A DNA stretch of 60,922 bases, filler included, from Streblomastix strix (lineage: Eukaryota): assembly GCA_008636045.1 (NCBI GenBank). It is 3 parts of 3 records of this genome, joined end to end, with 100 filler letters (N's around TTAATTAATTAA, not from the genome) between each part and the next. Parts side by side here need not be neighbours in the genome. Positions count along the whole stretch, not along the records: positions 1 to 20,253 come from SNRW01000445.1; 2 more parts are not named here. The stretch is one strand, 5' to 3'. Within the stretch, counting starts at the first letter, position 1, and every line of letters begins with the position of its first letter. Under the pieces are notes generated by a model that did not search any database, was not told the DNA's origin, and worked only from the letters and a program-made list of their open reading frames with translations. This document shows, in pieces, positions 1 to 40,700 of this stretch. The position numbers were made by a program, and so were the translations under genes.

Positions 1-701
1 ACATCTTATACCCATGACATTGATTTCATTCAATCAATGATAGAATTGGCATGCCAATCATCTATAATATTAATCTTTCCATTACCGTTCACATCATTAG
101 TTGCTCTTTTTAATGGTTCATAATCCGTATAATAAACACCTGCGATAGCAATATGAGTATTACCTTTAATTGATGTAACTTAATCAACGCTTCCAATTGA
201 CACACTTAAATAGAATCCTTTTTCACTAATATAACCCATTACATTCTATTTATGGCCAACATCATCTCCTAATATTATTGCATGCTTGCTAAATGGCCAC
301 AATTCTTCAGGGAAGTTAGTGAATAAAAATACCATGAAATTATTGTTTAAATAGAGTCCAATGTTATATACTACTTTATTTCTCAATTTATAGAAAAAGA
401 AGTATTCATCTGCAGGATTATACATTTAAACATTAGCTGCTAATTAACTCTTAGGGATTTTAAATATTTGAACTTATGGAATTTCAATAGGTACAATAGG
501 TTATGGAATTAGTCATTCATTTAATTTATCGTCATTATCCTTCACTTAATCCTGAAGGTGTTGAGGTTCAACAACAATTTGATTTGCAATTCCATCAATA
601 ATCGGTTTAGTTTCACGTTCGTGAATATATGCGTATAATTCTGAGAATTCTGATAAGCCTGCTGCGTCTAATAATGTTTCATCAATGTATACGTTACTCA
701 T
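1..701 (-). pseudogene. Viral ORFan A, possibly structural; 3' end lies beyond the contig edge
   Basis: MSNVYIDETLLDAAGLSEFSELYAYIHERETKPII... read with TAR=Q. In-frame TGA at 515-513 and a frameshift near 215. Confidence 0.6.
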
Positions 702-770
702 TTTATAGTTCAAAAATAAATAACGAAGTTGTCTAGATTTTAGCTAATCATCTTTAGATGCTTGATTGCT

Positions 771-3462
771 TCATCTTACCCAAAATGTATTAATTACAAC
801 ATTAGAATTTTAGGTCCACACTGTTGCTTATGTGGAGAAATGAACATATCCATCATCTGTAAACATAGCTAAATAATTACTATTCAATGTACAAAATATT
901 GTATATAACGGTGGAGGATTAACTGTACAAATATCACGACCTTAATAAGCTTATATTGTACTATCTGGCTTAACAACTAAGTAAAAGAAATATATTTGAT
1001 TGTTTATTTTTATTAAACTGGATTATGTTGCTGTAAATCCTGCAAACATTACTGGTGGAGTTAATACTTGATAGAAATTATAGAATTTTGATGTAATAGC
1101 ATTACTGACTTCGAGCCATGTAAGATATGTTGTATTTGTTAATAATTGTGAATCATCATCTTCGATACCGAATGGATTAATGTATAATAATCTTCCTCTT
1201 ACATTTTACGTATTTAATCCTGTCTTTCTTACGCAATAGTTGTTAATAATATTATTCGTATTACTATTATATACACCTTTTGTTACATAATCTTCATCAT
1301 CCGATTCTTCCTCACCGTTATCTTAACCTCTTCTTAATTTTCCATTAATAACTTATAAATCAGCACCTATTTTCTAAACATAATTAGTCATATCACCACC
1401 CCCACCACTGAACTCAGATAATGGTTTAGTTGACCCATTCGCTAATAGTACCTGCTGATCTGTTCCATCTGACTTAACAAATGCAGGTGCAGTAACATTA
1501 TTCGAAAAGGTTTTGGTTCCAATTACTGTTTAATCAACATCATCAGTTAATACGAAATGTGATTTATTTTTCATAGCGCCTGACATTACTACATAATCAG
1601 TACTATAACCTGGGAGTTTAAATGTTGGTGCTCTAACTTCAAGACTAAATACTTTATTACCACCAATTGTTTAATCAGTACATTTATCAACAAAGTTCGA
1701 AATATCAATTGAGTTAGTGAAATCAGATAACGACTTTGTTGATCCATTCGCCAATAATAGCTATTGATCTGTTCCACCTGATTTAATGAATTATGTTGCA
1801 GTTAGAATACCATTGATTGATCGATTATAAATAGATGAAACGAATTCACCTTTCACTGCGCCTAACGTTACATAGTCATCATCTGTTGGTTCAGGATATG
1901 GTTAATCTAGTGTTGTTTTTCATAAAATTCTTTAAATATCTTATACATCAGCATCTTTCTTTTCATAATTTGAATCATCAATTGTGGTCGTGAATTCAGA
2001 AATTGGTTTAGTGCCACCGGTTCTAAGTAATACTACAGTATTATCTGCACTTTATTTAACAAATGATTATCCTGTAATTGTTGACATACCATCAATAGTA
2101 CATGTGAATCTACAAGCATTATTAAATGTCTTATTTGCGTTAATTGATTATGAAGCATCCAATGTAACATAATTAGCTAAATCTATTTTCTCGGCTTTTT
2201 TCCTGTAATTAATCATTAAAAGTTTTGCTTGTAACTAATGCTTCCAATGCATCGAATTTAGTTATATACAAGTTATCCGACATACTATCAAAATGGGCTC
2301 TCTCATCCAATTATTAACGTAATCTTCCTTAAATAGTCTAATCTAAATCTTCTCCAGTTTTCTAAACAAAATTCGATAATATTGGAGTAGTTAGTATTTA
2401 ATCTTCAACAGCTCTAATCAATTCATTAGCATCATTAATCATTTCATCAACATCATGTTTATCATAATAATTATCTAAATACCCTACACTTGCTTTATCG
2501 CTTAATAATTCATCTGTTTTAGCATTATTGTAATAATCAATCAAATCAGCAGTTGGAGCTATTTCAGATATTGCTTTCACACCCCCACCCGCAAGAAATA
2601 CAGAGTTATTATCGTATCCTGAGTATTGAATACCATTAGAAATAATAGTACTTGTAAATGATTTCATTCCAATAATAGATTGATCAAATCCAGTGATAAC
2701 AAATATATCATTTTTAGCAGGTGTAAGTGTATTACCATCAATTGATATGTCAGTTATAGCATTACCATTTCCAGTTGCTGCACCGAGAGTAGTTATTACA
2801 TTACTCATATCAGGTAATTCAGTTTCTAGCGCTCGAAGAGCTGTTCCATCCCACCAATAATCCATTACTTCCTTATCAATTATATATAAATTATCTCCAA
2901 TTGCAAGTTTAGCCACATTTTCTTAATCTTCGATCCATGTATTCATCTCTTGTGTTGTTTCAAACACACATCCTTTAGATTTGCCTGAAGCTGTGTCACG
3001 AACTTCCTATAATTATGGTTGAGATACTAGTAAACTTACTAACATATCACTTCCGCCAGCAAGAAGAATAGAAGCGTCATTTTTGCTCTGTTTCGATATA
3101 CTAGATACGCTAATTATACCGAATTATTTTTGACCTGTTATTATTTGAGCAGAAGTTAAATCAACATATTCATCCAATTCAGTTTTATCGGCCTTAAGAT
3201 CTAACTTTTCATCAGTTTCTGTCTTAGTATAAGCATCGATTATATCTGTTTAATCAGCTTTAAGGTCTAACTTTTCATCAGTTTCACTTTTGCTATAATA
3301 TTCAGATAAGTCTACTTTAGGAGCATTATTTATAATATTGATCTGATTATTAATGTTTTGAACTTACTCCACTAATCCAACCTTATTATATCTAATATTT
3401 CCAAATAATATTTCATCATGAATTTAAATTACATCCATCACATGTGCTTCACATTATGCCAT
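771..3462 (-). pseudogene. Tail-fibre/spike-like protein, ~890 aa, disrupted
   Basis: YSKSETDEKLDLKAD repeats and repeated Q.I.G.K.F...F.KS.G....VLLA.G.TK..SEF modules typical of trimeric phage fibres. Beta-rich C-terminus ending FWVR-TGA at 771. Frameshift near 2200 and TGA at 1922-1920. Confidence 0.7.
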
Positions 3463-3549
3463 TTATTCAAAAATAAACATCGCTAGATGCTTAGTAACTT
3501 TGTTGCCGCTCTAAAGAGTAGCTTTTTAGATAAGAAACTCAACTATACG

Positions 3550-4095
3550 TCAGATTTTATTTAAAACTACTAGTAACCCTTACGATACTGCTTACAATAC
3601 TCTTGAAGATATCTAGCTTAAGTCCAAAATGGATGTTATTTTTCTTACTTTCCGCAGACATAATTTATAAGTATCTCTTATTAAATTAACCTTATTTTCA
3701 TCTAATGCGTAAATATTTACATTTCCAATAGTGATCTAAGTTAATGTTATTGTCCCATCATTCATAAATCTAGTGCAGCAAGTACTAACATCTTCATTCA
3801 ATTGGACTTATTATTCATTAACATCAAATGTATATGCAACAACTCGAATAAGTTAAGGTTCAGATAAATTGAAGTGAGCTGACTCTTTTAACATATGTTC
3901 ATCTTCACTAATTATATCCAATAACCATTTGCATACTGATGGATCAGCTGTTAATTCATTTTCAAATATTGAGCTTCTTCTTCGTATGGATTATTATAGA
4001 GAATCAATTGATGTTTATTAGTTTTTTTCAAATGGTGACTGTTCTTCAATAATTGTAGGTATTGATGTCTGTCTTGGGGTTGAAATTTACGTCAT
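3550..4095 (-). pseudogene. Viral ORFan C, ~180 aa
   Basis: ATG at 4095 (MTQISTPRQTSIPTIIEEQSPF...), apparent frameshift near 3870, TGA at 3552-3550. Shares the upstream TTATTTTTG motif. Confidence 0.5.
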
Positions 4096-4396
4096 TTTGT
4101 ATGAACAAAAATAAGTAACATATATGCTCAATTAAACATTGATAAATAGTCTTTAGACAGGCAACTTTGTTGTTACTCTTCAGAGCGGGAACTATGTTCC
4201 TAGTCTTTAGAGTGATCTTTTTCTTAACCTTTTATAAATTCGTTTATTACGTTGAATCCATTCGCTATCAAAAACAGATTAGTCGTCTCAACTAATTTTA
4301 CGATTAGTAGTGAAGTACTAACTATGATTTCAAATATCATTTTCAATTAGATAACAAAATATTTATAAGTCTGCTCTGCAGGATTTCTAAAGGAAG

Positions 4397-4720
4397 TCAA
4401 CTCAGTTAATTATTCTTCGGTATGATCTTTTACTCTATGTCAGTCTCTAAGTATTCTAACACAAAATTCATATCATCTTCTTTAAAATTATGATCGGATA
4501 ATAATTTCATTAACTATTTTTGAACAGTGTTATTTCTACTGTAAATTTAGGCTTTCTTTTACGCATATCTCCTCTTTGACGCTAAATATTGCTTTCATAT
4601 CGCCTCCTTTTGATCATCATCATTGAACTATTTCTTCGGTCTTTCGACTGATCTCTTTTCAATTTATTATTCACCTTATTCACTTTGATTTTCATTGTTA
4701 GTTTCGATTGTTGTCTCCAT
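4397..4720 (-). pseudogene. Small basic protein with degenerate AT-hook-like motif
   Basis: METTIETNNENQSEQGEQQIEKRSVERPKKQF...; ERPKK resembles GRPKK. Internal TGA at 4597-4595. Confidence 0.45.
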
Positions 4721-4746
4721 TTCTGTTTAAATAAAAAAAATAAAAT

Positions 4747-6574
4747 TCACAATTTTAATCTAAAGTATTATTTATATTCATTATCTAATTCACTCATATT
4801 TTTTGCCACTAATTTTGTGAAATATATTGGCAACACTACAGTTTATAAATCACTATATTGATTCAATAACTCAACTTTAACGATTCCATTAACATATTCG
4901 ATAAATATACCAATATTATTGAAATTGCGTCTAATTTTATCAAATTAATGTTTCATCTTTGCGGTTTCAATATGTAGTAGTAAAATATTACCCTTTTGAT
5001 ACTATTTCAAACCATATTGTTTTTGTAATCTTAATATGTCATTTAATTATTCTTATTAACGATAGATGTATTTGCCTTCTATTCGCTTATCATTTTGAAC
5101 TTATACTGGACTATAGTTATTTTAGTAAGCAATGTGCGGTGTATGATTATATAAATCAACAGTTTATTACATCAGATATTCATTAACAAGTTCATAAATG
5201 TTATTACCGAATGCGTTTCTTATTGTTCGAATTACTTTATCAATTACTCTATTATTATTAGTGAATTTGTTGCCTGTGAAGAATGTATTTATGTTATTTT
5301 CTTAATAGAAATCATTTAGTAATTTTGATTCATAAGACTTCTCACCATCCCCTCTTATATCATCAATCTAAACAAGCGATATGAGTTATTTTAGAGCATA
5401 AAGGATTGGAATTTATGATTTCGATTTCACTGGAATTACTACTAGATATGTAGTGTTTACATTAATAGCGAATAGATATTGTTTAATTTCAATACTCTTT
5501 TTCATTATGAATACTTAGTCAATTTCCCAAGAATTGTAGTTCGGTGAGAAGTACGGTCTTTCGAATTTCGCTAACAGTTTTAGTTAATAGTCATGCGGTT
5601 CTAGAGTATTAGTTTAGGGATAAATATCAAATTAGTTCTTAGTTTAGTGTGAAGGGATATCATAGTAATTAGCTTTACGGATAACATCATACTTTGATTT
5701 GAAAGGAAATTGCTTTTAAGTTATCTCTTGGAATAAATCATCTTTCACTCTTTTTTTTTGATTTCTTTGGCTTATGTTATTAAGTATACATTTTCTATGG
5801 ATATTTCTTGGAGTATTATAAGATGTATTAGTCATACCATTAGCTAAGAGATTAGTCGACAAAGTTAATAGTTTATGCTATTTAATCCAATACTTTGAAC
5901 TGCTTTTAATTGAACTTATGATTCAGAAAACTGGTATAAAATGACTGTTTTGTATTAATGCTTTCTTATTAGAGCATTGCATTTATTTTTGTGTTTGGAT
6001 CGATATCATTATCAAAATTGAATTATTCCTATTCAGTAACTATATCTATTATCTACTACTTTAATTTATTAAGTTCGTCAACAGAGTTGATTGACTAGCT
6101 TTGTTTTTTAGCTTTTGGTTTCAAAGGTTAAATGGTTGGAGTATTCAATAATGGTTAATTAATTCATATAGGCTAATATATTTAAATTTATGGGACTGTT
6201 GATGTTGATCTGAAATAAGGTTTCCCCTCTAACTAAGGATTTTGATTAATTGTTACATATCTTGCTTAAGCAATTTATTAATCAGTTTACTCCTATGCAA
6301 TGATAAATTTATACAAATTCGGATTTTCATCCTCTGCCCAACTCTTATACTTATCCCATAATTTATTATAATCATCATTTGTTAAGTAAATAGTATAATA
6401 ATATCCATTTTCAATTAGTCTTTTATCAGAATCTTTATCTAATAATTTCTTCATCTATGCATTTGATAAAATAACATTATCCGTGTTATCAAAATTATAT
6501 AAATAATTATAGGCTTTTGAATAAGAATCTATATTTTTCTATTGATCAAGTTGTTACAACTGTGTTAATGTCAT
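4747..6574 (-). pseudogene. Retroviral-type (rve) integrase with long N-terminal extension; at least one frameshift
   Basis: KPYFSPNYNSWEIDQVF, YLFAINVNTTYLVVIPVKSKS, IRGDGEKSY, NRVIDKVIRTIRNAF, YNHTPH, and a C-terminal YQKGNILL SH3-like motif. Confidence 0.85.
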
Positions 6575-6606
6575 TTGATTTATAATAAGTAAGCAAAAAT
6601 AATGAT

Positions 6607-6945
6607 TCAACTTATTATGTTGAGTTATCTTTTGAATTTATTAATATTTATAGCTACTCTACGATCATTTGTATCAGTCAAATAAACAATTTATGCTCCA
6701 GTCTTCTTTTATACACTAATAGGTAATACCAAATAGTTACGCGAGTAAAATTTATCCGTTATCTAACTATAGTAATAATAATTTTAAAACTCATAATATC
6801 CACGACCACTATCATAATGTTCAATACGAAAAGCATCATCAGGGAGTTGATAGACAAAATCATATTTAAGCTGTTGATTAATAAAACGAGATTCAGCACG
6901 TGATTTTATTCTAATGGATTAAGTCTGAGTTTCTGTCTATGTCAT
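6607..6945 (-). CDS. Paralogue of the C-terminal domain of the adjacent HNH protein (112 aa, intact)
   Basis: YDFVYQLPDDAFRIEHY...YYYSQITDKFY...INKFKRQLNIIS aligns by eye with YEYVDEVPDDAITINDY...YYFSEEKDKFY...INKFKRLYNIIN of 7014-7607. Confidence 0.7.
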
Positions 6946-7013
6946 TTATAATGTGGAAAAAAATAAAAAAAATAATAATATCTAGTTTCCTCATTTATTA
7001 TTTTTAGATAATT

Positions 7014-7607
7014 TCAATTAATTATGTTATATAGTCTTTTGAATTTATTGATACAAATATTAATTTTATCATTATCAATGTCATAAGCAATAACATATAA
7101 TAATCCACTTGGTTTTAATTCATTGGTGTGTAACACCCTATATTTTAAACCATTATAGTAATAAAATTTATCTTTTTCTTCACTAAAGTAATAGAATTCA
7201 AATCTATGTTTTCCATAATCATTAATGGTAATAGCATCATCAGGAACTTCATCAACATACTCATATATAATTTCGGTATTGTGTTTCGATATATTTTTCT
7301 AATTTTCTGAATTCGATACCCAACGTAAATTTTCTTTACTATTATCAGTTTTAACTCCATTTTTGTGATCGATTTATATCTTATTGATTGGGTCATCATT
7401 AACAACAAATTATTCCGCAACTAATCTGTGTAGTAAATGTGTTTATCCATCAAGATTTAACCTTAGATATCCACTATTGATTTTACTGAATTTAGGAATA
7501 AATCCATCTTATTTCATCCGTATAATTCCTGGCTTGGATATTGAAATCTCAAAATCATTATTAGCTTTAAGAGTGACGTATTCTGATTATGTTTCCTTTT
7601 CTGACAT
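7014..7607 (-). CDS. HNH (HNH_3/I-HmuI-like) endonuclease, 197 aa, intact
   Basis: GYLRLNL...HRLVAEQFVVNDDPINKIQIDHKNGVKTDNSKENLRWVSNSENQKN read with TAR=Q. Confidence 0.9.
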
Positions 7608-7654
7608 TTTCATCGAAGAAAAAAAATAAAAATAATATCTAATTACTTTTTTAT

Positions 7655-7798
7655 TCATTTGCATAGCTTTAATTCGCAAGTGAACTTGATTCCTGCTTCA
7701 TAAATAGCTTTCCATATAGCATGCCAACCAATATGTAGTGATACGAGAGCGTCAATTGCTAGCGTTATATTTGCAGTAATTGGTTCAAAAATAGTCAT
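7655..7798 (-). CDS. 47-aa viral ORFan
   Basis: MTIFEPITANITLAIDALVSLHIGWHAIWKAIYEAGIKFTCELKLCK*. Preceded by the shared TAGAT...TTATTTTTT upstream motif. Confidence 0.45.
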   Translation of the reverse strand: MTIFEPITANITLAIDALVSLHIGWHAIWKAIYEAGIKFTCELKLCK

Positions 7799-7799
7799 T

Positions 7800-8301
7800 T
7801 TGATTAGGAAAAAATAAATAATGAATCATCTATATTATCAAGTAAATCTTCTAATTATTTCTAATAATTGTATCTGATTTCATCATATTCCATTAATGCA
7901 TTATGTAGTCTGTCATAACTAGTATTATTACAATTAATCCAATGTATTTCATTTTATATACTATCTTTAAGTGTTGTTCTCATTTCAACGAAAGGATTAA
8001 TTGTAAAATCTCGCACTTCAATGAAGGGTTTGTCTATTTGATTAGGATTTATGCCGTTACTTATGGTTTTATTAGTATGATTTGGTTTTCGATTGAAGTT
8101 AAACATATTAGCATTTATGATGTCAACATAGTTGGTATAGGATTACTATTTATCAATAATTTCTTATTGTTGCTATTTCTTTTTCATTAATTCGTTAATC
8201 GTTTTATTGTTTGCATCAATTTGAGTTAGATATTGTTACATGGTTTGACTTTAGTTAGCAGAGTTTAGACCTATTGTATCTAGATTCTTCGAATATTCCA
8301 T
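7800..8301 (-). pseudogene. Viral ORFan, frameshifted; 3' end approximate
   Basis: ATG at 8301 with the shared T-rich upstream motif; MEYSKNLDTIGLNSANQSQTMQQYLTQID... Confidence 0.4.
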
Positions 8302-8339
8302 TTTAGATTAAAATAAAAAAATAAAAAAATAATAATAAT

Positions 8340-11300
8340 TCATTAATCTTTGATTTGATAATCCTTTGCTGTTAATCTTTTAATATAAGGACAACAATAT
8401 TAATTCTTAAGTACTATTGATTTATTATTGAGCACAGTTAGTGCATACTTTTCTACTTGAATGCTGCTCATAACATTATCGTACATTTTAAATGTTCCAT
8501 TAATACCTTTCTTCACTATATCTTTATTAATTACATTAACGTAATCATTGTGCGATATCTATTATGATTTACTAATACCTTGAGATGTTATTTTTGGTTT
8601 AAATTCATTCTTTTATTTTTTTTTACTCCATTTGTGTACAATCATTGAATAGCACTTAGGTTCTAATGATGTAAATTCATATCCTTCATTTTCTATCCCA
8701 AATCCAAGTATCTTTTTGTAGTCATAGATGTCTTTATTAGGATTAGTTAAATACTAGTATACATGTTAGTCATAGAATTGTTTATCTGTGACTATTGATT
8801 CAAATTATTAATGACAGTCTTTAGCGGGATTTCCTGCAATAGCTATATAAATTGAATCAGTATCTGCAAGAACAAAATGAAATCGTTTTCGGTCTAGATA
8901 TTTATACATGAAATTATATATATAATTGAGATACCAATATTTTGTATTGTCTAGTGTAAAAACACCTGATTGAATTGATGTGAAGCAAGTATCTGTCTTA
9001 GGCTTAGTTTATACTGCAAATGTGTTAGCACTAATTCATCTAGTACCAATGTGATTAGGATGATGTTATGCAATAAATGTACCAGCTTTATCTAACATCT
9101 TTCTCTTACCAAACTTCTCTGTATTTAGTGTATCATATCCATATGATGCATTAATTATAAGTTTATAGAATTTCTCTTTAGATGATCCTGCTAATATAGC
9201 TTAAATCCTTAAGTTCTTCATTGTCCTAACAAATGGTTCATATGCCGCATTTTTCTCAAAGACTGCAATAGCTTTACAGTCAGTAATGATGAAACCAAGA
9301 TCAATAAGTAACCAAAGATAATAGTTATTGAATACCATAAATTGACCGTTAGTGTCGAGTAATGTTGTAAATTTTTTATCTTTCTTAGTCATTGGAAGTG
9401 AGTGTTTTTGTGCCTATGAATACATATATTCACCTATCACCTTTTTTTTGTTTTTTATTTCAATATTTCTAAAGATTGGTGGAAGTGCAAGGAGGTTATT
9501 GTACTCTGATTTAGGAAAGTAGCCTTAGACTTTTGCTACAAATATATCCTTTCTTTAATCTATGCAGTTTTTGACTACATATGGTTTTTCTGAATAAAAT
9601 TTCGATCCTCATGCCATATACATTGTATGATCAGTGTAAGGTATATTTTCATTTTTGACTGATGAATATGAACTGGGATAAAGGCTATTACCATCAAGAG
9701 CAAATACATGAGTAGCTACGTTTTCATTATCTTATGAGATCACTTTGTTTGATTACTTATCATAAGTTAATTCATTTATATGAGTTTTACCTGCACTATT
9801 CTCTCTATGAAATACCGCTGCGAGTCTACCTGTAACACATTTTCGAAGTAATTTATATATTCTTTCATCACTAATTGTCATAGGTAAATTGTTCTTAATT
9901 GCATATTATCTCATCTTAATATGTAATGATGCTATTTTTGGATCTTTATTTGCATGCGATACATTACACGAAACACATGCAGGCAAACAGTTAGCCTTTG
10001 TATGAGGAAGTTCATTATCTTATCTATCTAAACTCGGAGGATTGTCATAAGTGAATTTTGCACTACAAATTGAACACACTGATGTTTCAAATAACCTCTT
10101 ATAATAATCATAGTCATCAGCTGTTACGTTTTTCTCTGTTTCTCTACCTGCTTTATAATCTTGTTATTTATACTGATAACATTTATTCTTCCAATACCTT
10201 GCTGTTAGTTCAAAAAGTTTAGCTTTAGGATTTGGATTGGAATAGTCAGCGTTTATATCAAAATCAAAGTAATATGTCTATTTGTCACATTCAAGATTGA
10301 ATTTAGAAGGAAAATATGTTGAATAGTATTTCGTTGCATATGCACATGAAGCAATTGAAATATAGTGTAAAACATCAATATTGAATTATTCAAATGTATC
10401 AATTAAGTTCATTAATGGCTTAAACATAATCTCTGTATCGTTAATGTTATAATATTTGAGGTATTCTAACCTGTTGGTGAATCTCCTAAAATCAATCAAA
10501 TATTAATCATATTTATCTTTAGTGATAGAATAACCTCCTTTGAGCTATGATTTGAAATCTTCATATTCAAATGGCTCTGTTTTCATTAATACCTCGTTTC
10601 AATTCTTTGTGTTAATAATTTCATAAGGAAATACATCTTTATGTTCAGATTTGTCGCCATAATCCTTTACGCAAGCTTTTAATGTCATTGGACCGAATAA
10701 ATTCTCTGCATCAATGAATTGTAATTTCATATGTAACTTCTTGTTTGTTACTGTAATTAATTTAGTATTATTGAGATCACCAATAGGTACACCCATTGTC
10801 CAAAATTCACAATCTAATGCATCCCATAACAGAGCAATATCAAATCTTGAAATATTCCATCCTAATACCTTAACACATCTGTCAAAAGGAATATTTTCAT
10901 TATCGTACTTCATACACTAATATATCTATTCTGCCGATTCAAATGTTTATGCAAGCCATAGATGAACAAATGATGAATAGGATGGCAATCCATAATTTTC
11001 TAATTACTCTTTATAATTCTCAGATAATTCATCGAATAATGTATAACATCTCATAACTAATTCATATGATTTATCTTAATTGCGGAACATTTCTGTTGAC
11101 GCAATTGATAATTTAGATAATTATGAGAATAATGTTTTTTAATCTGTTATATTTTTCATAACTTATTCACTTAATGTTTCAAAGTCATATGTTATAAATC
11201 CTCGCTATGCTTTAAACTGATCCATTAGTCCATAAGCCATTAAGTACTCTATTGTTGGATGATTTAATACTGCAGGACATATAGGCATTGGAACATCATG

Positions 11301-12912
11301 TAATAAAATTGATGGCTCATGAGTTGATGATTTACATTTTTCCACATGGGTATTGAAATATTCATTAGCTCTCTTGTTAGTATCTGATAATATTGTAACA
11401 TAATCATGACAGTAAGGGCATATAAGAACTCCTGTTAGCTTTTCAACATTAGATACATACATTACGTGCTGCTCAATCCCATCGCTAATGAGTAATAAGT
11501 CTAAAGTCATTGATTCATTATTAAGTTCACCATATGAATTAAATAGTCTATATTAACCTGTTTCCCCTTCTAACTCTTCATGATAAGTGTATATATTAAC
11601 AACAAGATTGAATGTATCAATGAATTTAGTCATTTCAGTTGAGATATTGAATCTTTAGTAACCTTATAAATATTTGTTTAGTAATTAGTCTTTCTTAGCT
11701 GTATTATTATATTAGTACTCAAACAGTTAATATTTACCTTTAATTTTGTAGTAGTAAGCGAATAATTGTTTAACAAAAGTTATTACTGAATTGTTATTAA
11801 CTTTTTCATCAATTTCACTTCTTATTTTAAAGGATAGTGCAATAAAGAAACATATTTTATAATCTGAATCTATATATAATTAACTGAATGCTATTTAACA
11901 TGCTTATCAAGATATGGCATTCTTGCTCCAGTGTCTATCAACTTATAAGTAGCGAACATTACATTAAATATCCAAACTATCAGATTTCTAGTGTCTTCAT
12001 ATGTTCGTTCCATTACTTCTCTTAAATATTTGAATATATCTACTTTGAATTATTCCAATGATTTCTTATTAGTTATTGTTGATTATTAATGTTTGAAAGC
12101 ATTATCTAATGAAGGAATTCTACAGGAATATTCATAATTATCTCCATCAAGTTTTTCTAATATTAGAACTCCAAAATCAATTTGAACTTTAAATGGAAGT
12201 CATTTATATGAATCATATACTTTATCTACATATTAAGACAGTTGCTCTTACTGAGTTAGTTTATTAAAGTAATGAAGTTTATAAGTAATTTCATCATAAA
12301 AAATTTCAGCAATTGCTTCATTATTTTTGAATTTACTTACACTTTTTATTGTTTTAATTGCTTCCTCTTCAGTTTCAACATCACATAATTGTAATGCAAT
12401 TTATGATAATTTATTTACCATTTTTGAATTCTCAATTGTTGAAATTGCGTTAGAGATATCATCATCATTTTGCATCAATTATTGGTTGAGATTACGTTTA
12501 ATTTTATTGATTTTATCTTTATATATATTCTATCAACATCAAACTGTTTAACTTTGAATCAATCTATATCATCATAAGCGTCTAATCTATGTTTAATTTT
12601 ATTAATTCTATCAGTATATATTCTATCAACATCAAACCGTTTAATGAAAAGTTAGTGTTATCTATCATACAACTTATCTTTGAAATCTGATTAATTGACA
12701 TCATTTTCTTACATAAGTTATTGATATGGTTATCCTAATTATTATTCAAGAAATTATTGCACAATATCAAAGTTTGTTCTATTTCCTGTATAATTTAAAT
12801 CCTTTAATTTTGTAACTAATTCAGCATATAATGAACCATATTTATCTGATTCATTGATTGGTCTAACAATAGCCATTAATTAAAAAATTTGTGGTTTTGT
12901 CAACTTAGACAT
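8340..12912 (-). pseudogene. Protein-primed family B DNA polymerase (pPolB), ~1520 aa, disrupted
   Basis: ExoI FITYDFETL, ExoII VLGWNISRFD, ExoIII YYNINDTEIM, PolA FALDGNSLYPSS, PolB KLIINASYGYD, PolC LADTDSIY. TGA at 9038, 9611 and 12561; frameshift near 11890. Confidence 0.93.
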
Positions 12913-12987
12913 TTATTAAGAAATAAAAAAATAAATAATCATTATAGATAATAATATTAATTTTTTACTATTAATTTTATAATTTAT

Positions 12988-13107
12988 TCACATACATTGG
13001 CTTAAATAAACAACAATATGCGTTAGTTGTGGGGATTATGGTTCCAGTTATCACGGCAGAATTAGTGCTCTCCGATGCGGATATTTAACTAAAATTGTCT
13101 ATGTCAT
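12988..13107 (-). pseudogene. Tiny subterminal ORF (39 codons, internal TGA)
   Basis: MTQTILVKYPHRRALILP*QLEPQSPQLTHIVVYLSQCM*. Confidence 0.25.
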
Positions 13108-13109
13108 TT

Positions 13110-13217
13110 GATTATTGAATATGATTTATTTTTGCGTTGATGTTCGTAGTTATTTGGCGTGGACGAATGATGTCATTTTCATACGGAAAATCATGGCCTC
13201 CAAAATTTTTATACTCT
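13110..13217 (-). repeat. Putative terminal inverted repeat/end of the Polinton-like element
   Basis: GC-richer non-coding tract beginning AGAGTA (Polintons start with AG), with a small hairpin attttc-atacg-gaaaat. The partner end is not in the window. Confidence 0.5.
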
Positions 13218-13223
13218 ATCTCT

Positions 13224-14742
13224 GTTAGTAAAGGATGAAAATAAATAAAATCATAGTCATTTTCATCTTCATCATCATCATCTTCCCTTTCTTTTTCATC
13301 ATCATCTAAATTATATCAACTTCTTAATCTTAATTTATAGCATCCTTATCTACAATCATTTGAATAAGAAGGAATAACAAAAGAATTAATTAAAAATATA
13401 TTAATAAATAATAATGATAATTATTCTTTTAAAGTAAAATCATTAGAAATACTTGATGCGCTCTATCTTGAAGGAATAATATTGCTTGTTGAATAAAAAG
13501 AATAAATAATCACTAATCTCTGTGAATAATCAAAATCTGATGACAGTTAAATTTGAGAAAATGCATTAGAACTTCTTTATTATTTATCAATTAACTTAGG
13601 TTTGATTATATTTACATTTTACATTAAAATGAAAATAAGTTAATAATAAATTTTTATGTAATATATTTAGAATTTATTATTATTTTGTTTTAAAAAAATT
13701 ATATTTTTATTAATTCTGATAATGATGAAATGATTATTGCTGGAGACGGAATTATGACTGCTGTTAAATATGTTAAGTATAAGTTAATAAAATCTAATTT
13801 TAAATTTATTTAAAATGTTCAATTTTAATATAAATTATTTATTACTATAGGAAAGAATCAGAAGGAAAATTAATTAATTATTTAACACTCAAATACTAAC
13901 TTTCTATTCTTGAGCGCAATTTAATATTTGGCTCAGTTCAAACACAATAATTAATTAAAAATTCAATTTCAGTTGAAATAATTTAAAAAATAAAATATAA
14001 AGATAAAGAAATCAATTAATTTTTAATTTCATGCTAATTTTCAGAAACAATTAAATTACTTTTGAGAATTAGAAGAATTGTAGAAAGAAGAAATGAAAAT
14101 GAAATAGTTAAATTGATTAAATCTGGATTAATAAAAATATTTAACGAAATAATTGAACAAACATTACAAATTAATGAAGGAGAATATTTTTTGTTAATTA
14201 TTGGGGAAATAATTAAAATACTAATTGAAAATCATTCAGAAGTTAGTCGAAGTATTGTTGAGTAAACCGATTTTGTTGATAATTATCTTCATTCATTTAG
14301 TATTTGTTAATTAGATAAAATCAATGAAGAATTTCTTATATCATTACAAAATCTTTCTAAATATATTCCCAATGAGTAAAAGAAAAAACTATTTGAAAAA
14401 AAATCTATATAAATAATAATGAATAAATATGAATCAAAATATGAAAATTTGAGTTGTGACGCATTTAATATAATACTAAAAATCATTGAAGCTGAAGCTT
14501 ATGGATTAAATGAAGGATAATATCATCCGTATTTTTTATTATTATAATAAGATGGAACAATTATCAAATTAATTTAACTTCTCAAAAATAATATTAAATT
14601 TTATGTTAATATTGATAGAATATTTGTATATCTTTACAAAGCATAACCACTTCCAATAGAAATCAAATAAGAAATTGTTGAAAAACAAAAAAATTCGTCT
14701 AATATTAACATATATAGTCAAATTTCTGATGATGAACATCTG
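13224..14742 (+). pseudogene. Host helical-repeat (ARM/HEAT-like) protein, 5'-truncated; boundaries approximate
   Basis: Intron-containing L/I/E-rich helical coding sequence (VKSLEILDALYLEG, NEIVKLIKSGLIKIFNEII) starting at the element edge. Contains an internal TGA. Confidence 0.45.
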
Positions 14743-14989
14743 AACAAAACAAATATTTTTTTTCACGAATTTCCATGTTTAGCCCCACAGTTTCATTTGC
14801 GCAACTAACGTTCAAATTAAAGTTAATATTCATGTCAATACGAACATTTTGATATGAGGGTCGACTATGGTAAATGAAAAGTACCAGTCTTAGATCGCTA
14901 CCATAATTTGGTTTAATAAATCAAGGATTTTGTTTATTTAATGCTAATCAACATTTTCGAATCTTCTAATAGATTTCTGCCTAAATCAA

Positions 14990-16279
14990 ATCTATTTTTC
15001 GTTCAATGTGTTTTTTTGTTCTAAATATACATTTGGATTGAACTGAGGATATTTTCCTGATATTATCCAAATAAATAGCATATATATGTAGAAATGTAAA
15101 TAAACTAAAGAATTAAATAATATGTTCTACACACAACTGTTATTTCACTCGTAATTCTCCCAATCTCTGTAAGGTCAGGAAATGAGAATCTGAATTAATA
15201 TAAATCAAAAATAATAATAATAATAAAATAAAATAAAAATTCTTTAATTTTGCTTTTCCAAGAATTAAAAACTATAAACCCTATAGTAGAAATCAGTAAT
15301 TAATTCATCTACTAGATATTTAATTTCTATTTCTTAAATAACCTCTCAAAGAACTGACGCTTATCATCTTTATCAGGACTACTGAAAATTACTAATCTTT
15401 TGGCGTGCATTCTGATTTTTTCTGGAATACTTCTGATGTTTCTCGATGTCATGATATAAGTTGCATCTGGAGCTATAATACATTAAATTTATTCATTGCT
15501 CTTTTGAAATATTATAAAATCAATACCTTTATTACTTAATTACATATCTAGTTCATCAATAATCATATCACGTTCGGGATTATCCTCTTTGACTATTTCT
15601 TCAATGTCCTTGATAATCAGCAAACTTGGCTTTAATATATTAGCTTACTCAAAAAATGATGCAATTTTCCTAGAAAAATATAGTAAATAAAATATATTAT
15701 TAAAATCGTTAAAATTTTCTTACAAACTCAACACGGGTGCCACCTTCAACTTGTTCAATCATTTTCTGAGATATTATTACATATATAAGATGGCATTCTG
15801 TCGCAAATGCGTCTGCAATCATCTTTTTCCCACTTCTAGGGGGCTTTAATTTTATAAAAAAATAATATTTTGAGAAAAAAGTTATAAAAACAATAAAAAT
15901 ACTCCCCAAAACAAGAAACACCCGCATTCATGAGATTTAAGATTTTCTTACAACTCTGATTTAATACGATCGTGGCCTATGACGTCAATCCATTGAATTT
16001 TTCGTCTTTCTTAGCCTATAAGCACTTGTTTTGCTTGATTTTCATTTAATTATTCAGTTAATCTAATAATTTATTTCAAATTGTTTTCAAAAACTTCCTA
16101 AATATTTTAAAATATCGCTATTTTTAAAAGAAAAACAAAATTCATACCAGCGCCTATTTTTATTCTTTATTTATCAACTTCTGTAGCAATTCTTAGTCAG
16201 TCTCTTCAAGTCTAATCCTAGACCAAGGTATATAGAGATCAATTAGTGTCGGTTCATCCAGTTCATTTTGGGTATTCAT
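14990..16279 (-). CDS. Degenerate AAA+ ATPase (VPS4/katanin/spastin-like); 3' end approximate
   Basis: IQWIDVIGHDRIKSELQE, Walker A FWG|PPRSGKKMIADAFATEC split by an intron, Walker B KPSLLIIKDIEEIV. Confidence 0.6.
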
Positions 16280-16549
16280 TCCTTAAAGATCTTACCCATA
16301 ATTCAAAGATTTATACAACAAATTTTAATAAACAGCATTTATCTCATTGTTTAAGCAATAAAATGAAATAAAGCATAATTTTACATCTAATTATATTAAT
16401 GATTAAAATAAATTTAAAGCTATTTAATTTCATTTTTTAAAAGCCGATTTTACAATCAAAATTGCTTATTATTTAATTATTAAATAATAAAATATATTGT
16501 TTATTATATCATCTATATAATCTTACTATTTTATTATTATTTATTAGAG

Positions 16550-19030
16550 CAAACGAAGAATTAAATGGCAAATATAGACAAAGATTAACTATGAGTGTTG
16601 CACCAATAGCAGCAGGAATTATACTAGTATTCATTAGCATGTTTGGGGATAAATATAAAAGAAAGCATTTTTATATCGTAGAAAAGAAATATATTGTATG
16701 TTAATCGAAGAATTTACTAGTTTGATTTATTAAATAAAATGATTAATTAATATAGAACTTAAATATTTATTATAATTTGTTAACTTTGACTTTATTTCAT
16801 TAATTTTATTGATAATATACGTAGGATATCATCAATATATTATAATGTAATAATGCCATTTAGTATTGAGTGTTCAGCACATAATGGAGTTAAACCAAGA
16901 GATAAATTAATTGATGTTATTCAGATTTTTGAAACAGGTTCAAGTTATAGTTTGATAATTATATATATTTATTATTTAACTAATATAATTAATTAATTTA
17001 ATTATAATTATAATCATACAGGTGCAACTTTACCATTGTATATAGTAATTATTATCCTTAAAACATGGTAATCTATTCTTGAAATAAATGATAAATTCTT
17101 ACACTGCAGAGAGGAAGATTATTGTTGCATTTAATAAAATAATGAAATTTTAATGAAATTAAACATTGAAAATTAGAAATATTTTGGAAAAAAACTATGA
17201 AAGTGTGTAAAAATTATATAATATAATTGATAATAAAATTTATTTCATTTATTTATTTTTATTTCAGGTAACAAATTCAACAAATCAACATATCACTACT
17301 ATTAACAATATTTTAAAAATATTCATGATATAATTATTGATTGTAATATTATGATATGTTTACTGTAATATTAGATGAACAATAATAATCTTCTGAATCA
17401 ATTATTCACAAATGAATAAAATAATAAATTAATAGATTAGATAAATATGAACTTGAATAAGAAATAAAAAAATTATTCTTTTCTTAATAATAATAATTAG
17501 AATAAGATCAATTAATATAACCTTCATCAACATTATTAAATTCTTCATAAACAATTCTTTCATAATTAGCATAACAATCTGGTTTAAATTAATAATCACA
17601 TCTTTTAAATCATCATTTTGCTATTTTATCTTCAAAAGTAAAATAAATATCTTAATAATCAAAGAAATTATATTTATTATCTGAATATATTTTTGAAGAT
17701 ATAAAGAAAGATACTAAAGAATAATCATAAAATATTAAACAAAAGATTGATTAAAAACTTAGTCATTTAGTTTGGATTGGTCTATTTACATTTGTATTAG
17801 CTATACCAATACCATTTGATACATTATTGATATTGAATGCATAAAAATAATTATAAGAAGTGAAATTAAAAGATAAATAAAATATTAATAAGAATAAAAT
17901 TGAATAATAAACAAGTAATTAAACCAGAATTCCTAATTCAAAGAAATTAGAAAATTTTCATTTATTTAAATTTGATTCTCCAGTTATATACATTTCAAAC
18001 CTAACAATTATTCCACTTCATTCTTAATCTCAATAGTCATAATTACTATTTAATAGATGAGCTTCTTTTATTATCTAATTATAATAAGGATAATTATTTA
18101 GATTGCCATCCACTGTTCGTTCATAAGTTGATATTGAATAAAATATTTAAATTGAATAATTAAAAATTATAAATGAAAGAAAAAAAAAAAATTATTAGAA
18201 TGATTTATATTTAAAATTAGAATTAATAAAGGAATTATACATTGCATCAAATAAATAAATAAATCTCATATATACAAAGAAATAAATCAATAAATAATCA
18301 ACATCTCTTCTTCCAATTGAAATAATTATATCTTTATCATTTTCATCATTTACTTAATAATCTTAATAGTAGTAATCTTCCTAATAATAAATTAATAATT
18401 AATTAAATAGACCATTCAATGTCATTCTTTCATTAATACGTCTTCATAGAATAGCAATTTCAATAATTTGTGATATTTATCCTCAGTCATTTATTTAATA
18501 AATAAATAATTTCATAAACAATACATAAAATAAACCAGATAAATAAGAATAAGAAAACAATACGGAATAATAAGATGAAATAGATGATAAAGAAATATTG
18601 TAAATTTTTCTAGATTCTAATTTATCTTTTCTTCGGTGGAACAAATTAAAATAATAATTGGAGAAAATTCACTAAATTATAAGAATATTATTTATGTTAT
18701 TAAATGAATATGAGATTTCTTATATAATTGTTAATTATTTAATATATTAATAATCACTTCACAAACCTTTTGATTATTCATTATGTAATTGTTTAACATT
18801 AATTTACAAACTTTTAATATTAAGTAAATTTCATAATATTATATCAAAAAAGAAAAATCATTCTTTGTATAGTGAATTAATAAACAAAACTAGTGAAATT
18901 TAAGACATTTTGTGGAAATTTTTATTCATTTAATTTAATTAATTAATTGAAATTGTAATAGTGGTTTATTTCTATTTGGTGCATTAAATACGATTAGTTA
19001 TATATAATATTCTTTGAAATTATTATATGA
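16550..19030 (+). other. Probable degenerate multi-exon Q/N/I-rich coding region of unknown function
   Basis: Long TGA-poor frames and GT-AG introns; no recognisable domain. Confidence 0.25.
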
Positions 19031-20253: not shown

Positions 20254-20353
20254 NNNNNNNNNNNNNNNNNNNNNNNNNNNNNNNNNNNNNNNNNNNNTTA
20301 ATTAATTAANNNNNNNNNNNNNNNNNNNNNNNNNNNNNNNNNNNNNNNNNNNN
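20254..20353. other. Artificial contig linker
   Basis: N44-TTAATTAATTAA-N44, identical to 40601-40700. Confidence 0.97.
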
Positions 20354-20459
20354 ATTGTCCGCTGAGTAGATTCAGATGACAATGGATGAGTTTAATGTGG
20401 GCATATAACTGGCAGATGAGTAGAATTTGTGATGTACATTTTTTTCCTTTTCTTAGTTT
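20354..20459 (+). repeat. 106-bp inverted copy of 22055-22160 (Yak1 3' end)
   Basis: Reverse-complement match with one mismatch. Confidence 0.95.
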
Positions 20460-20471
20460 GATTCAATTAAA

Positions 20472-21696: not shown

Positions 21697-22081
21697 TAAT
21701 TAGCTGTTAGTATATTAATAATAAATAAATATCTATATTTTTTATGTTTGATTGTTTTATTTATTTATATGTTAAAGTGAAATGTTAGATAAATAATTAA
21801 GAAAATAAGATAAAATATATTTACAATATTTAGTGATAAATAATTAAAACAAATATTAAAATAAAAACGTTTAAAATATTTCCCTATTATATAAAATTAA
21901 GATTTAAACAATACGTCATTCAAATCTATATTAAATACGAGTTAGATTTCTAAAATAAATAGTTTAACGCAAGTTGCTTTATGAGAAAATTTAAAATTTA
22001 AAAAATAAATAATGAATTATAACAATATAAAATTTCCAGATAAATAATTTAACAAAACTAAGAAAAGGAAAAAAATGTACA

Positions 22082-25000
22082 TCACAAATTCTACTCATCT
22101 GCCAGTTATATGCCCACATTAAACTCATCCATTGTCATCTGAATCTAATCAGCGGACAATAAGATCTCGAAATTTTGAGAGTTTGAATCATTTTGAGAAT
22201 TAGATGATTATTATTATTATAATTACTGTATTTTTTGTTTTTATGAGTGAAAAGACGATTATAGACTAATGGAAGGTGTTGTAAACTGAGATTATGAAGG
22301 CACATTCTGTTAACTTATTTATTAATCTGATTATTCTCGAATTTTAGGAATTATTTACTGGTTTGATAGTTGGCTAATCTATATTAGTGAAGTTAATACT
22401 GGCTGCTGTGAAAAATCTTACAACTCCAGAATTTGCTGCAACTGCGAACTTGAATTTGTGTGCGATTGCGATCGTGAAGGTGCGTCATATTCAGAACTGT
22501 TTTTAGAGTTAGAAGCAGAAGTAGAAGTAGAAGTAGAAGAAGACAGTAAAATATCGAGGATCTGAGTTGAATTAAGACTCAGGCTGTCATTTTACGCGAT
22601 GAGCTTTGTGCGTGTTGACAATCTTTTGGCTTTTCTCTGAACACGCACTGAGCTTTATCCGTCTTTATCTTTGTGCGATTATTAGTTACTGTTTAATTCG
22701 CTTTACTCATTATTTTTGAATTCGGCTGATTCTGAGTTATTTTCAAGCAATTACTGGTTAGTAATTTTACCAATCTAGTTGAAAATCTAGTTAATATTCT
22801 TCAGATCTAGCAAATCTTTTATTACTGGTGAGCTTGTTGCATTATTCAATGCTGATTATTCTTATTGTTATTGTTGTAGAGGTGAGTGCTAGAGTAATTG
22901 GTTAGATTAACTCAAATTTGAATAATTAGATTAACTCATATTAAGTGATTCTGGAGATTGAAGTTAAGTTTGTGTCTGTTAAAGTTGTCCGCTTGAGTGC
23001 GAATCAGAAAGATTATCCAAACCAAGTTAAAAATTAGTGAAATTAAATCCAATTAGGTTATTTAAAGTAGAAAGACTATTACCGTCCAAGCTGTTTAATT
23101 TGGATGAACTTCTTCCGCTTTAATTGTTCAAATTGTTCAAATTTATTGGGTTAACACCATTAGAGATGTTCAGAATTGATGCACTGCCCACGCTCTGCAA
23201 TAACAGTTACGATTGTTGTTGCAGTTACTATAAATATAATTATTCAGGTGAAAGTGTTATTATAGGAGATTCGGATAACTGTAGCTGTTTATTTTACGAC
23301 GATGGTAATTGCTGAAATTGCAGTTGTTGGTTCTGAAATGACGACGAGAATGAAAATTGTTGGGAAATTTCAGAATTATTCCGAAATTTGGGTGTATTTA
23401 ATTACAGTTATGCAGAGGAGGATTGAGTGCTTTATTGCAGCGAACTTTGGGTGATTGGAGTTTATGTATTTGACGTATTAGTATTAATATTACTGCTGAT
23501 ATTATTGTTATTATTACTATTACTGTTTTTTCTGTATTAATTATTGTAATCTTTTTCATTCGGATTCAAATTTTCTTATGAATTATCTTATATTTATTAT
23601 TGTTATGCTGTTTATTTGTCATTATTTAAATCATTTAATGTCAATTTTTCATCAGAATTCAAAATTTTTTGTTGTTCATCAGGAGGAGAGACAAATAATA
23701 AATCTTATTATGTAAGTTTTTCTAATTGTTATGGAAAATCCTATTAAACTTGTTATAATAATAAATTTTGATCCTATTTTATGTCATCATTATTATTTAT
23801 TTATTCCGATTATACTTTTTATTCCTAAATTTTCTATTAATTCTAAAATTAATTCAGTAAATTTTCTTACTCGTGTTATTGTTGTTACTGCAATTATTTT
23901 AAAGATTTTACAGTTCGTGAAGTTCGTACAACCCTCGACTTTGTTGTTTCTTGGCGACGAATTGCAGATTGTTATGATGAAGAAGATTTCTGCTATTAAA
24001 TTCTTTATGAAGAAGGTTATTATGAGTTTTATTACTGAATTTGCTAATTGGATGATTGATCTTGTAAATATTAGCTGGATAATTAAACATTTCTTTGTGT
24101 TGGTGGTTAGGAGTTGGATAATTATTACTGATTTTACTAATCAGATGATTATTACTGAATATATTAGTTAGAAGATTATTAATATTATTGAATTTATTGG
24201 TTAGATAATTATATATTTCTTTATGATTGCTACTAAGAGGTTTATTATAGAATTTATTAATTCGATTATTGTTATTGAATTAATTAGTTAGATTATTATT
24301 ATTGTATTTACTGCTAATCATCTTAAAAAGGAACTAGACTCGGAACAGATGATATTTTCTTCCTTGATGAACCGATTGGCGATTTTACACTTGGTTATTT
24401 CTGAATGATTTGTTGAGAAAGAGAAGGTTATTGTATTTTTAATTACGGTGATTATTATAATTATAATTACTATTATTATTAAGATGAAGTGGAAAAAAGT
24501 GAGCTTTATTATTGGATCTGCTAATTCTATTAATATATAGTTTATGATGATTAAGTTTGTTATTCTTCTTTTGGAGTTTAATGTGTGAGTTATTATTATT
24601 ATTGTTATTAATCGTTATGTGACGACGATAATGATAATGAAGGTTATTATTATACTGACGATTGCAATGAAAACAAAGGTTTCTAATATTCTTCTTCCTC
24701 CACTACTACTATTTTCTCTGGTAAGAACAAAGGGTACGTTTTGTATGACTCATATCGATTTAACTGATTTGAAGGTTCTAAGTATTATGATTGAGATACA
24801 GTCGATAGTTGCTGTTATATACTAACGTTTTTATTAATCTATTCGTTGCTGGAATTATTGACATGTGATAAATATTAATTCGATCTCTAACTATTTTAAT
24901 TGTTATTTTCATTGTTATTTGTTGAGCTTTTGATATTTTCATTGTTTTATATTTTTTCAATGTCCATTAATTTGATTTTTTAATCCTCTAAGCCTGGAAA

Positions 25001-28000
25001 ATTTTCTTCAGCGAATTGGATTTATTCCTGTTAATTTTGTTATTTCAAAGTTTATATCTGTTATAAATCTATTTATTATTATTATTATTACTACTATTTA
25101 TCTGTAACAATATTCATATTGAAATTTGCATCTACATTAGATTTACTGTCAATATTATCATTAAAAATGTTATTTATATTAAGTGAAATACCTCCAAAAT
25201 CATCTTTTTCTTTTACTCTTAATCCAAGTCTAACTTCAACATCAAACATAATATCGTTCATTATCTTAGATGAAATGATAGCAGCGTCCAATAAATTGGA
25301 ATTTTCAGCTTATTCTAATTCTTTTTCTTATTACTATTGTTCAGTTGTTTTCTGTATTTGATTTGATAGAGGAGGTATGCTATATGAAAGATGAGGAACT
25401 TGAAGTGATCTTTAATGCAATAAATCTTCATTTAATATTTAAAGATTTATAAAATCCATCATAATTTCATCAGTATTATTCAAATCATAATTGTATTTCA
25501 TTTCTATATCCAAATTGACATTTTAAAACACGTCATCTAAAATTTCATCAATTATTATAGATGAAATAATTGCTCCATCAATATTAAATTATATCTAATC
25601 ATTCACAGTTTACTCAAATTTATAACTAAATTCATTTTACTGCTTTAATTCACATGATTGCTTTGAATCAGTAGTTTATGATATAGTGTCTTATTTATCA
25701 GATATAACATCAATTAAATTCTTTAATTGAATTTAACTTCTCAGAGTTCCATAGTTGCTGTAATTACTAAGCCCTTAATCAGAAGGATCTTATGAAAAGC
25801 TACTTACTGAGCTTTGAGATTGCGAATGTTGGAGCAATTTTGAGTTTTTCTGTTAATTTTATTATTGAAATAGTTATTATTATAATTGTTGCTGTTGTTT
25901 GCGGTAATCTTATTATTAACCTGTTAGTGTGTATATCTATTATTCAGTTCCTTCGATTGATTATGTACGAATTTTCTCAGATTTAAAAGACGTGTTTTCG
26001 GTTCGAGATGAATCAAATACATTCAAAAACTTTGTATTTAGTGGGAAATTGTTATTGATATCAATCTTTAAATTTATTTATTAATTTTAATCTATATTTT
26101 AAGCATTATTTTCCTATAGTTGTTTATTCGAGTCTTCATACTTTGAAAATTCGATTGATAATCGAATTTCTTATTATTGCTCAAATTCACCTAATTTTTC
26201 AGATTGCTCTTATATAATTTGGTCATTTGCATTTTAATTCAATATATTAAATTAGCTATTATTCCCAGATATCAATTGGCCATTATTCAAACTCATATTA
26301 TTAGCAATATTATTACTGCTTATATTTTAATTAAGATAAATAAATGTATTATTACTGGCCGTATTATTTGTAACTTCGCTATTCCGGTTTTGTTCGATTT
26401 TGGAATTTTAAAAAGAACAGCTGTTGTTTAATGTATTGCTCAAGACTAAGTAATTGTTATTTTACATATTATTCGAATTATTGATTTAATCAACACTTTA
26501 ATTTTAAATTAGTTACTTATTATTAAAATGGTTAATATAGTTCTATTATGTTTCAATAAATAAAGCTGTATCTTCAAATATATCATTAATTATTTGCTGT
26601 GAAATGAAAACTGCCTTATTTTATTCATAATTTAAATTATAATCATATTAGTAATTATATATATTCAATTGTAATAAAGTTTGATCAAATATATCATCAA
26701 TTATCGATTGGCAAATATTGTTATTCTCTTTCTACTAATTTTCAATCTAAGTTCTAATTTCAATTTCATTCTTAAACTCAGCTTCTTTAATTAATCTTTC
26801 ACCTTATCTTCGTAATAAAGTTCCCGTCTCTTAATTTGTTATTACATTCTCATTTATAATATCATCTACAATTCCATTTACAATTTCACAACTTGCAATT
26901 CTAGAAGTTTTCAAAGCATCATTAAAAATATCAATGAAAGTTGCTTAAGCAAAGTAGATTGTATCAAGTTATTGTTCGTTTACAAATGAAGTTTATGATT
27001 GATCCTATTTAAGATGTTATTAGTCAGTTTCTTCATCTTAATCAGGTATTTAAATTCCATTTGATCTTTGATTCTGAATAGGTTCACAATTTTAATCTTG
27101 CTATTCATCTTTATTATATATCTAATTTATTAATAACGAATTATAAGTTATTTTTTAATTATTGTTAACATGCTGAAATTGTTTAAGGGAATTTGCTTTA
27201 GAAACTACTTTGAAATTTTGCAATTAAAACTAATCTTGATCATCATTTTCAATCCCCATAGATTTCTCACTCAACAATTATTCAATTTCACTTTAATTAT
27301 CATTATCAACATCATATTATGATAATTTTGATCTCGAATTGTGATTCTAATTCTGCCTTTATGACAATAATTTATGCTACTAATTTGATCTCTAACTTTA
27401 AATCTACTGTTAGCTAGACACTTACTGCAATTCTCTCAATGATTGTTGTTGTTTCTCCCTCTTTTATTATTCAGTCAATCGTGGTGTCTCTTACTCAATA
27501 ATTTGTGGAACGAGTCTAAATTTTAACCTCTTCTGTGATCTCTTAACATTTGAGCTCCTGGACTGGTTTGTCAGTTCGCTGGTTTACTGTATGTTCATAA
27601 ACGAGAGTTGCTGCTCCTGCTCTAAATTCATAATGTTCTGATCCTGACTCTGATGAACGATCATTGACTGATGCTGCTGTTGTTACCTAGATATAGACAT
27701 CTGCTATAATATATTCGGTTTTGAATCAGCTTATGTATGGGTGTTTGTGATTTGCGTTTGGATCATCGAAAAGCTGATTTCTCGCTGTTTCGTTAAGTCT
27801 TCATCCATATCTATGTCTAGATGAGCGATGTGCGCTATATTGTTTAAATTTGCAATGTCGGCATTGTTTAAGTTTAAGTCTTGTTTCTCATCAATAACAA
27901 TTTCTATTGGTTGATCTAATTTAAGGCTTTTCATGCTGTTGTATTAACTATTAAATGACTTCTCACCAAAATTATTGCTGTTATCAGATTGAATATTACT

Positions 28001-35461: not shown

Positions 35462-35537
<76 letters not shown>

Positions 35538-40600: not shown

Positions 40601-40700
40601 NNNNNNNNNNNNNNNNNNNNNNNNNNNNNNNNNNNNNNNNNNNNTTAATTAATTAANNNNNNNNNNNNNNNNNNNNNNNNNNNNNNNNNNNNNNNNNNNN
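40601..40700. other. Artificial contig linker
   Basis: N44-TTAATTAATTAA-N44. Confidence 0.97.

Follow-up and report, generated by a model that had tools for sequence, protein, structure and literature searches.

The first 13 kb of the window, by which we mean the whole 60,922-nucleotide stretch of Streblomastix strix DNA analysed here, raise the question of what kind of mobile element is written there in a code that reads TAA and TAG as Gln, and whether this copy could still be active. We read positions 1-13223 as a single inactivated copy, cut by the contig edge, of a high-copy family of Maverick/Polinton-like endogenous viruses that uses the TAA/TAG=Gln code of its host, most likely the oxymonad S. 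strix from the termite gut, and we put the probability of this reading at about 0.88.

Six-frame translation with table 6 gives 11 complete genes on the minus strand, all in the same direction, packed from 12912 down to 30 and each terminated by TGA, in agreement with the roughly 11 co-oriented, TGA-ended genes that a sequence-only reading of this DNA had proposed. A further gene may start at 20 on the minus strand and continue past the contig edge. The features are, from left to right:

30-701, minus strand: ORFan of 223 codons, with a premature TGA at 515
771-3480, minus strand: repeat-rich fibre-like gene, with a frameshift near 2210 and a premature TGA at 1922
3550-4095, minus strand: ORFan of 181 aa, in the same frame as the fibre-like gene and with one TGA between them
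4128-4340, minus strand: ORF of 70 aa (table 6 translation) with a hydrophobic N-terminus
4397-4720, minus strand: charged ORFan of about 107 codons, with a premature TGA at 4597; P0061 is 74% identical across the stop
4747-6574, minus strand: rve-type integrase gene with a long N-terminal part, a premature TGA at 6166 and a frameshift in an A run near 5750
6607-6945, minus strand: intact 112-aa paralogue of the C-terminal domain of the HNH protein (33% identity, E 1e-11)
7014-7613, minus strand: intact HNH endonuclease of 199 aa (Pfam HNH_3, E 9.7e-11; PHROG HNH, E 8e-20)
7655-7798, minus strand: small, conserved and intact ORF of 47 aa without TAA/TAG, related to P0017 and P0021 (68-79%) and P0322 (45%)
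7795-8301, minus strand: intact ORFan of 168 aa, whose C-terminal part also follows pPolB in a second S. strix subfamily (P0320, P0309)
8340-12912, minus strand: pPolB gene, broken, recognised from S. strix relatives, DNA_pol_B_2 in relatives and exonuclease and palm motifs
13031-13223, minus strand: probable terminal segment and TIR candidate, starting with AGAGAT at 13223 and recognised from contig ends and GC content

With the standard code the longest stop-free run of the minus strand is 174 aa and the runs of at least 100 aa total 394 aa, and with table 6 these figures are 485 aa and 6,298 aa. The claim that all genes are readable only with TAR=Gln stands insofar as 10 of the 11 carry in-frame TAA or TAG, the 47-aa ORF being the one that has none; it falls short in that 5 of the 11 are broken even then. 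Sixteen coding segments hold 195 in-frame TAA/TAG and 19 TGA in 4,100 codons; ten of these TGAs terminate genes and nine are premature, and the eleventh gene end, at 4399, falls outside the segments counted. TAA/TAG make up 162 of the 221 Gln codons (73%) in ten element segments, and 65%, 74% and 58% of those in three host ORFs. As in a host-adapted EVE of S. strix, TAA/TAG thus stand for Gln at a host-like frequency, and TGA is the sole stop.

The main pPolB frame has 34 TAA/TAG sites, and close relatives have Gln there in 453 of 516 aligned cells, a count that is partly circular because those gene models use the same code; it shows that these are fixed positions in the close relatives. The same sites have Gln in 54 of 417 cells (13%) of 16 distant metagenome relatives, compared to 26% at CAA/CAG sites and 4-5% at Lys/Glu sites, which is a modest enrichment. 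Where pPolB has three of its TGAs, relatives mostly have Trp at one (17 of 20), Gly at another (14 of 16) and Arg at the third (13 of 16). These are three different residues, and TGA is therefore no recoded sense codon, a possibility that we could rule out. At the position of P0001 residue 345, the two sister copies P0006 and P0021 carry Gln where others carry Trp. It is likely that the host code hides part of the decay, as a stop of the standard code becomes a mere missense here.

The polymerase was, with its breaks read through as X, compared with 5.8 billion proteins and gave 25 matches, all 25 of them S. strix gene models with 60-90% identity. Pfam DNA_pol_B_2 falls on two of the ten relatives scanned (P0037 and P0034, E 8e-6 and 5e-5, below cut-off); the Pfam scan of the window copy itself and PDB sequence searches gave no match, and the exonuclease and palm motifs were recognised by eye in the sequence. 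There is an endonuclease VII-like insert at residues 473-573 (phrog_1035, E 5e-10), and homing-endonuclease inserts are described for polinton pPolBs in a passage of PMC11161782. By eye, a Cys and a His in the first third of the protein agree with the vOTU domain that is described in the same source. A tandem duplication of about 90 bases at 12520-12650, in the 5' part of the gene, coincides with its first stop and frameshift.

The integrase gene most likely extends over 6574-4747, beyond the 362-aa ORF alone. It has no direct match in Pfam, PHROG, NCBIfam or PDB, and a comparison of its core with plasmids and phages gave no useful match, but P0331 shares 44% identity with the core (E 2e-67), and in the ESM Atlas the region of P0331 that matches lies nearest to rve clusters (score 0.96), of which the first is parabasalid. 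The third catalytic position is, by eye, Asp in both. A pPolB, an rve integrase and an HNH nuclease had all been named from the sequence, and the nuclease is clear from Pfam and PHROG, while the other two are supported through their relatives, which gives the element both the polymerase and the integrase of a Maverick. Given its S. strix relatives, host-like Gln codon use and rve match, the element was rightly proposed to be of Polinton/Maverick type and adapted to a protist that reads TAA/TAG as Gln.

The order pPolB, 168-aa ORF, 47-aa ORF and HNH has matching pieces in the gene models P0309, P0320 and P0322 of the distant second S. strix subfamily, and the two small ORFs are therefore conserved genes. 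The 70-aa ORF had no significant family match. Nine of the 11 genes have a T-rich tract (at least nine T in 12) within the 45 bases upstream of their start, compared with 4.5% of background windows, and nine of the 11 have AA before the ATG; the starts were in both cases partly chosen by eye. The tract is possibly a shared promoter or terminator.

The fibre that had been claimed keeps its repeats, among them an internal direct repeat of 92 nt, and two weak matches (BppL_N at E 0.005, below cut-off, and phrog_5004 at E 3e-7 over 26 residues), but the gene is broken and tblastn against 50,697 phage records gave no clear match; nor was a chaperone domain found in it. The further step from the fibre to an extracellular virion stage does not follow, since a fibre call resting on weak matches shows no such stage by itself. 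From its frame, the 181-aa ORFan next to it may possibly be the N-terminal part of the fibre. The ORF at 30-701 is, as its position after the fibre suggests, a putative minor capsid candidate; it had no match in family searches, and its single-sequence structure model has a pLDDT of 31.

Contigs from four termite-related runs (three samples at most) were aligned over 1-17000. In run X1 the 23 bins that cover 1-13041 have a summed contig depth of 5,400-53,000, and the six bins beyond 13609 have 32-504; X2 and X4 show the same drop, and X3 shows it weakly. The element is thus about a hundredfold deeper than its flank, although summed contig depth is no copy number, and the step marks a repeat family beside single-copy DNA.

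An active Maverick would have intact core genes, and this copy has nine premature TGAs (12561, 12202, 10601, 9611, 9038, 6166, 4597, 1922 and 515) and four frameshifts (near 12540, 11875, 5750 and 2210). They break five of the 11 genes, including all three large ones: the pPolB with five stops and two frameshifts, and the integrase and the fibre-like gene with one of each; the other two are ORFans. The element, implied to be intact in the sequence-only reading, is in this copy a fossil. At 514, 4597 and 12202 nearly all contig depth in all four runs has another base (among the 40 rows listed of about 2,300), and at 5749 other copies are 1 or 4 bases shorter in the contig comparison. The Gln at TAA/TAG sites in relatives and the different base of other copies at premature TGAs together mean that recoding is shared by the family and that the stops are damage private to this copy. 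We regard it as very unlikely that the element is intact and that its breaks are errors made when a repeat was collapsed in assembly, even if simple repeats hold two of the frameshifts, the scaffold of the window has gaps, and a passage of PMC10120064 (Bellas et al. 2023) shows many stops in protist EVE assemblies to be artefacts. A collapsed consensus would hold the majority bases, whereas the window holds rare ones; of the depth of 6,192 at 514, about 21 does not carry the majority base, a value resembling the single-copy flank. There are moreover thirteen breaks within 13 kb, all 25 relatives fall short of the approximately 1,500 residues of a full pPolB (the longest has 1,290), and the end branches between copies are 0.05-0.18.

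The decayed copy has its right end at 13223, six bases further out than the edge at 13217 claimed before. Among 32 contig pieces listed, four (from three runs) put the end of the multi-copy sequence at 13223 +/-1 and others stop at 13206-13227, and the multi-copy depth falls off near 13210-13225. The segment 13031-13223 has 35% GC, against 15% inside the element and 20% outside, and the AGAGAT at the boundary agrees in five of six positions with (AG)3, the end motif of vertebrate Mavericks according to a passage of PMC8097293. We take 13223 to be, more likely than not, the true terminus of the element. The window contains no second copy of the segment and no second TIR or TSD, only one element end lying on the contig, and no contig bridging the junction was among the longest records listed.

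The terminus could also be a deletion breakpoint, a reading that is possible if doubtful, with full copies having a capsid gene upstream of pPolB, so that this copy would have lost its capsid module on the side towards the host and would not have it beyond the contig edge. The gene model P0030 points that way, as it joins a fragment of a capsid family (residues 2-165) to the 13222 segment and to the window pPolB, all on one strand, but a nested or tandem insertion would equally yield it, and its arrangement fits a longer element or a nested neighbour alike. The segment holds an open frame of about 85 codons and folds no better than shuffles (z 0.96). Against this, the boundary coincides with AGAGAT, which is close to (AG)3, and the frame gave no protein relative in a weak search. 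Counted by hand, the first, second and third codon positions of the frame hold 9, 6 and 7 of the 22 variable sites listed for 13047-13195, which is no coding signature, and the lengths of the common indels near 12962 are not divisible by three. The frame 13222-12960 as a capsid remnant was ruled out, matched by none of 114 capsid-family proteins.

These 114 are the further S. strix proteins retrieved with the N-terminal part of P0030, some of them labelled major capsid protein in UniRef; one, P0213, has Preaxostyla, Parabasalia and Capsid_N as its nearest Atlas clusters at 0.96-0.98. The structure model of the family is poor (pLDDT 43), with no fold match at E 0.001 or Z 5, and the family (about 650 aa) did not turn up in the searched part of the PMC10120064 supplement. 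In P0276 and P0287 a small, glycine-rich and amphipathic-looking ORF is fused ahead of the capsid, and it is a candidate for a membrane-active virion protein.

The window itself has no capsid gene, and family searches of its ORFs gave no match to a packaging ATPase (A32-type), a protease or a minor capsid protein, in an element that is cut by the edge. An ORF at 15003-15758 was ruled out as packaging ATPase, being a likely host AAA fragment (AAA, E 0.003; single-copy depth). No morphogenesis gene is thus identified across 13 kb, and the link of capsid and pPolB is one chimeric gene model, with none of the other 114 capsid-family proteins matching the element. Both points would suit a capsid-less self-synthesising transposon, or something linear-plasmid-like, with the host capsid genes coming from other families. 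Such an element is improbable in our view, since it would have a fibre-like gene inside it and an integrase with a parabasalid rve as nearest Atlas cluster. To our knowledge, linear plasmids are without rve integrase. The long-missing capsid of the related Trichomonas Mavericks was moreover found, as a passage of PMC10120064 reports.

For the Maverick/Polinton-like virus that we prefer, the gene set, the code use, the breaks and the high copy depth come from the data, and the life cycle of the active ancestors is drawn from Maverick biology. They would have integrated through the rve integrase, their linear DNA would have been copied by the protein-primed polymerase, and it was likely packaged in a double jelly-roll capsid bearing the fibre. 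Depending on host tRNAs and release factor, the virus may have drifted in its TAA/TAG towards the Gln usage of the host, with TGA left as the only stop. After insertion selection would have been lost and private stops and frameshifts have accumulated in this copy, which is no longer able to produce a polymerase, an integrase or a fibre of its own.

The wider relationships of the polymerase were sought with HMMER over 1.84 billion representatives, which gave 1,032 matches. Twenty of these were looked up: four are clusters of additional S. strix pPolB subfamilies with about 33-40% identity, one is labelled Methanobrevibacter and the others are metagenome proteins; a named T. vaginalis pPolB was not among the matches examined. 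Related loci were not confirmed in viral contigs, metagenome contigs or GTDB genomes, where the exact peptide patterns used say little on absence. P0048, a relative of 2,043 aa on a 7.5-kb contig, is filed as Methanobrevibacter sp. and is probably a piece of a protist virus that was binned with an archaeon. The sister of P0048, P0043, matches Prim-Pol weakly in its C-terminal part (E 0.006). In a midpoint-rooted FastTree phylogeny of 33 chosen rows, made with no named outgroup and no one-clade test, the three S. strix pPolB lineages group together (SH 92, unstarred), with long branches meeting, and this grouping is a lead, not a result. We tentatively suggest that S. strix has at least three deeply split pPolB lineages, one clade apart from the metagenomic relatives, and at least two capsid families, and that perhaps a virus clade has diversified inside, and become locked to, TAA/TAG=Gln oxymonads. 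About one codon in twenty is TAA/TAG, and the genes would therefore be cut short in gut protists with the standard code, so that the code, if this is true, would act on host range as a barrier in one direction, for a virus that bore a fibre and was once infectious.

Trichomonas vaginalis Mavericks are likewise high-copy elements with pPolB and rve integrase in a metamonad, and parabasalids are the nearest named Atlas clusters for both the integrase and the capsid of S. strix. These Mavericks use the standard code. Closer still are the S. strix EVEs of the 'Metamonada' MCP group in PMC10120064, where passages state that the endogenous viruses of S. strix use the TAA/TAG=Gln table of the host and read this as a long association; host species (by protein relatives), code use and inference are the same as ours. 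Those passages deal with capsid genes, and the gene map, fibre, terminus and decay state come from the window copy. A row of Table S1 in that paper gives 820 for S. strix, which we read as capsid hits, its map file has five loci, and it may already cover this element family. A literature search found no other paper on both Streblomastix and Polinton. The implication that the element was unknown does not hold: the family is already among NCBI gene models translated with the host code, and the shared code is stated in the passages above. The main point, a Polinton-like virus sharing the reassigned code of its host, is already published for S. strix, and this copy is a decayed member of the published class.

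Phage-like, repeat-rich fibres with BppL_N and tail-repeat domains occur in PLVs according to a passage of PMC12220804, and the window gene has a repeat-rich fibre in common with these (e.g. Gezel-14T), but its BppL_N match is below cut-off, it has no chaperone domain that we could find, and it is broken. A passage of the 2026 PLV framework (10.64898/2026.06.19.733378) leaves the metamonad elements ungrouped. The copy is still useful in two ways: it supplies a gene map for one family of a group that present PLV schemes are unable to place, and it lets one ask, in a natural setting, whether the genetic code of the host limits the movement of viruses between gut protists.

Outside the element, the window carries kinase and WD40 genes that are split by introns, as well as long ORFs that use the same code. 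A 116-nt inverted repeat of 97% identity (20354-20469 and 22045-22160) begins at a gap edge and copies the end of a host gene, and is likely an amplification or scaffolding artefact. The gaps at 20254-20353 and 40601-40700 contain an all-frame stop spacer. Large host ORFs lie at 22082-31840, 33905-40600 and 47438-52249, and comprise a Gln-rich kinase of more than 3,000 codons, a repeat protein of 2,200 aa (GGAIY-type repeats) and a membrane protein rich in cysteine.
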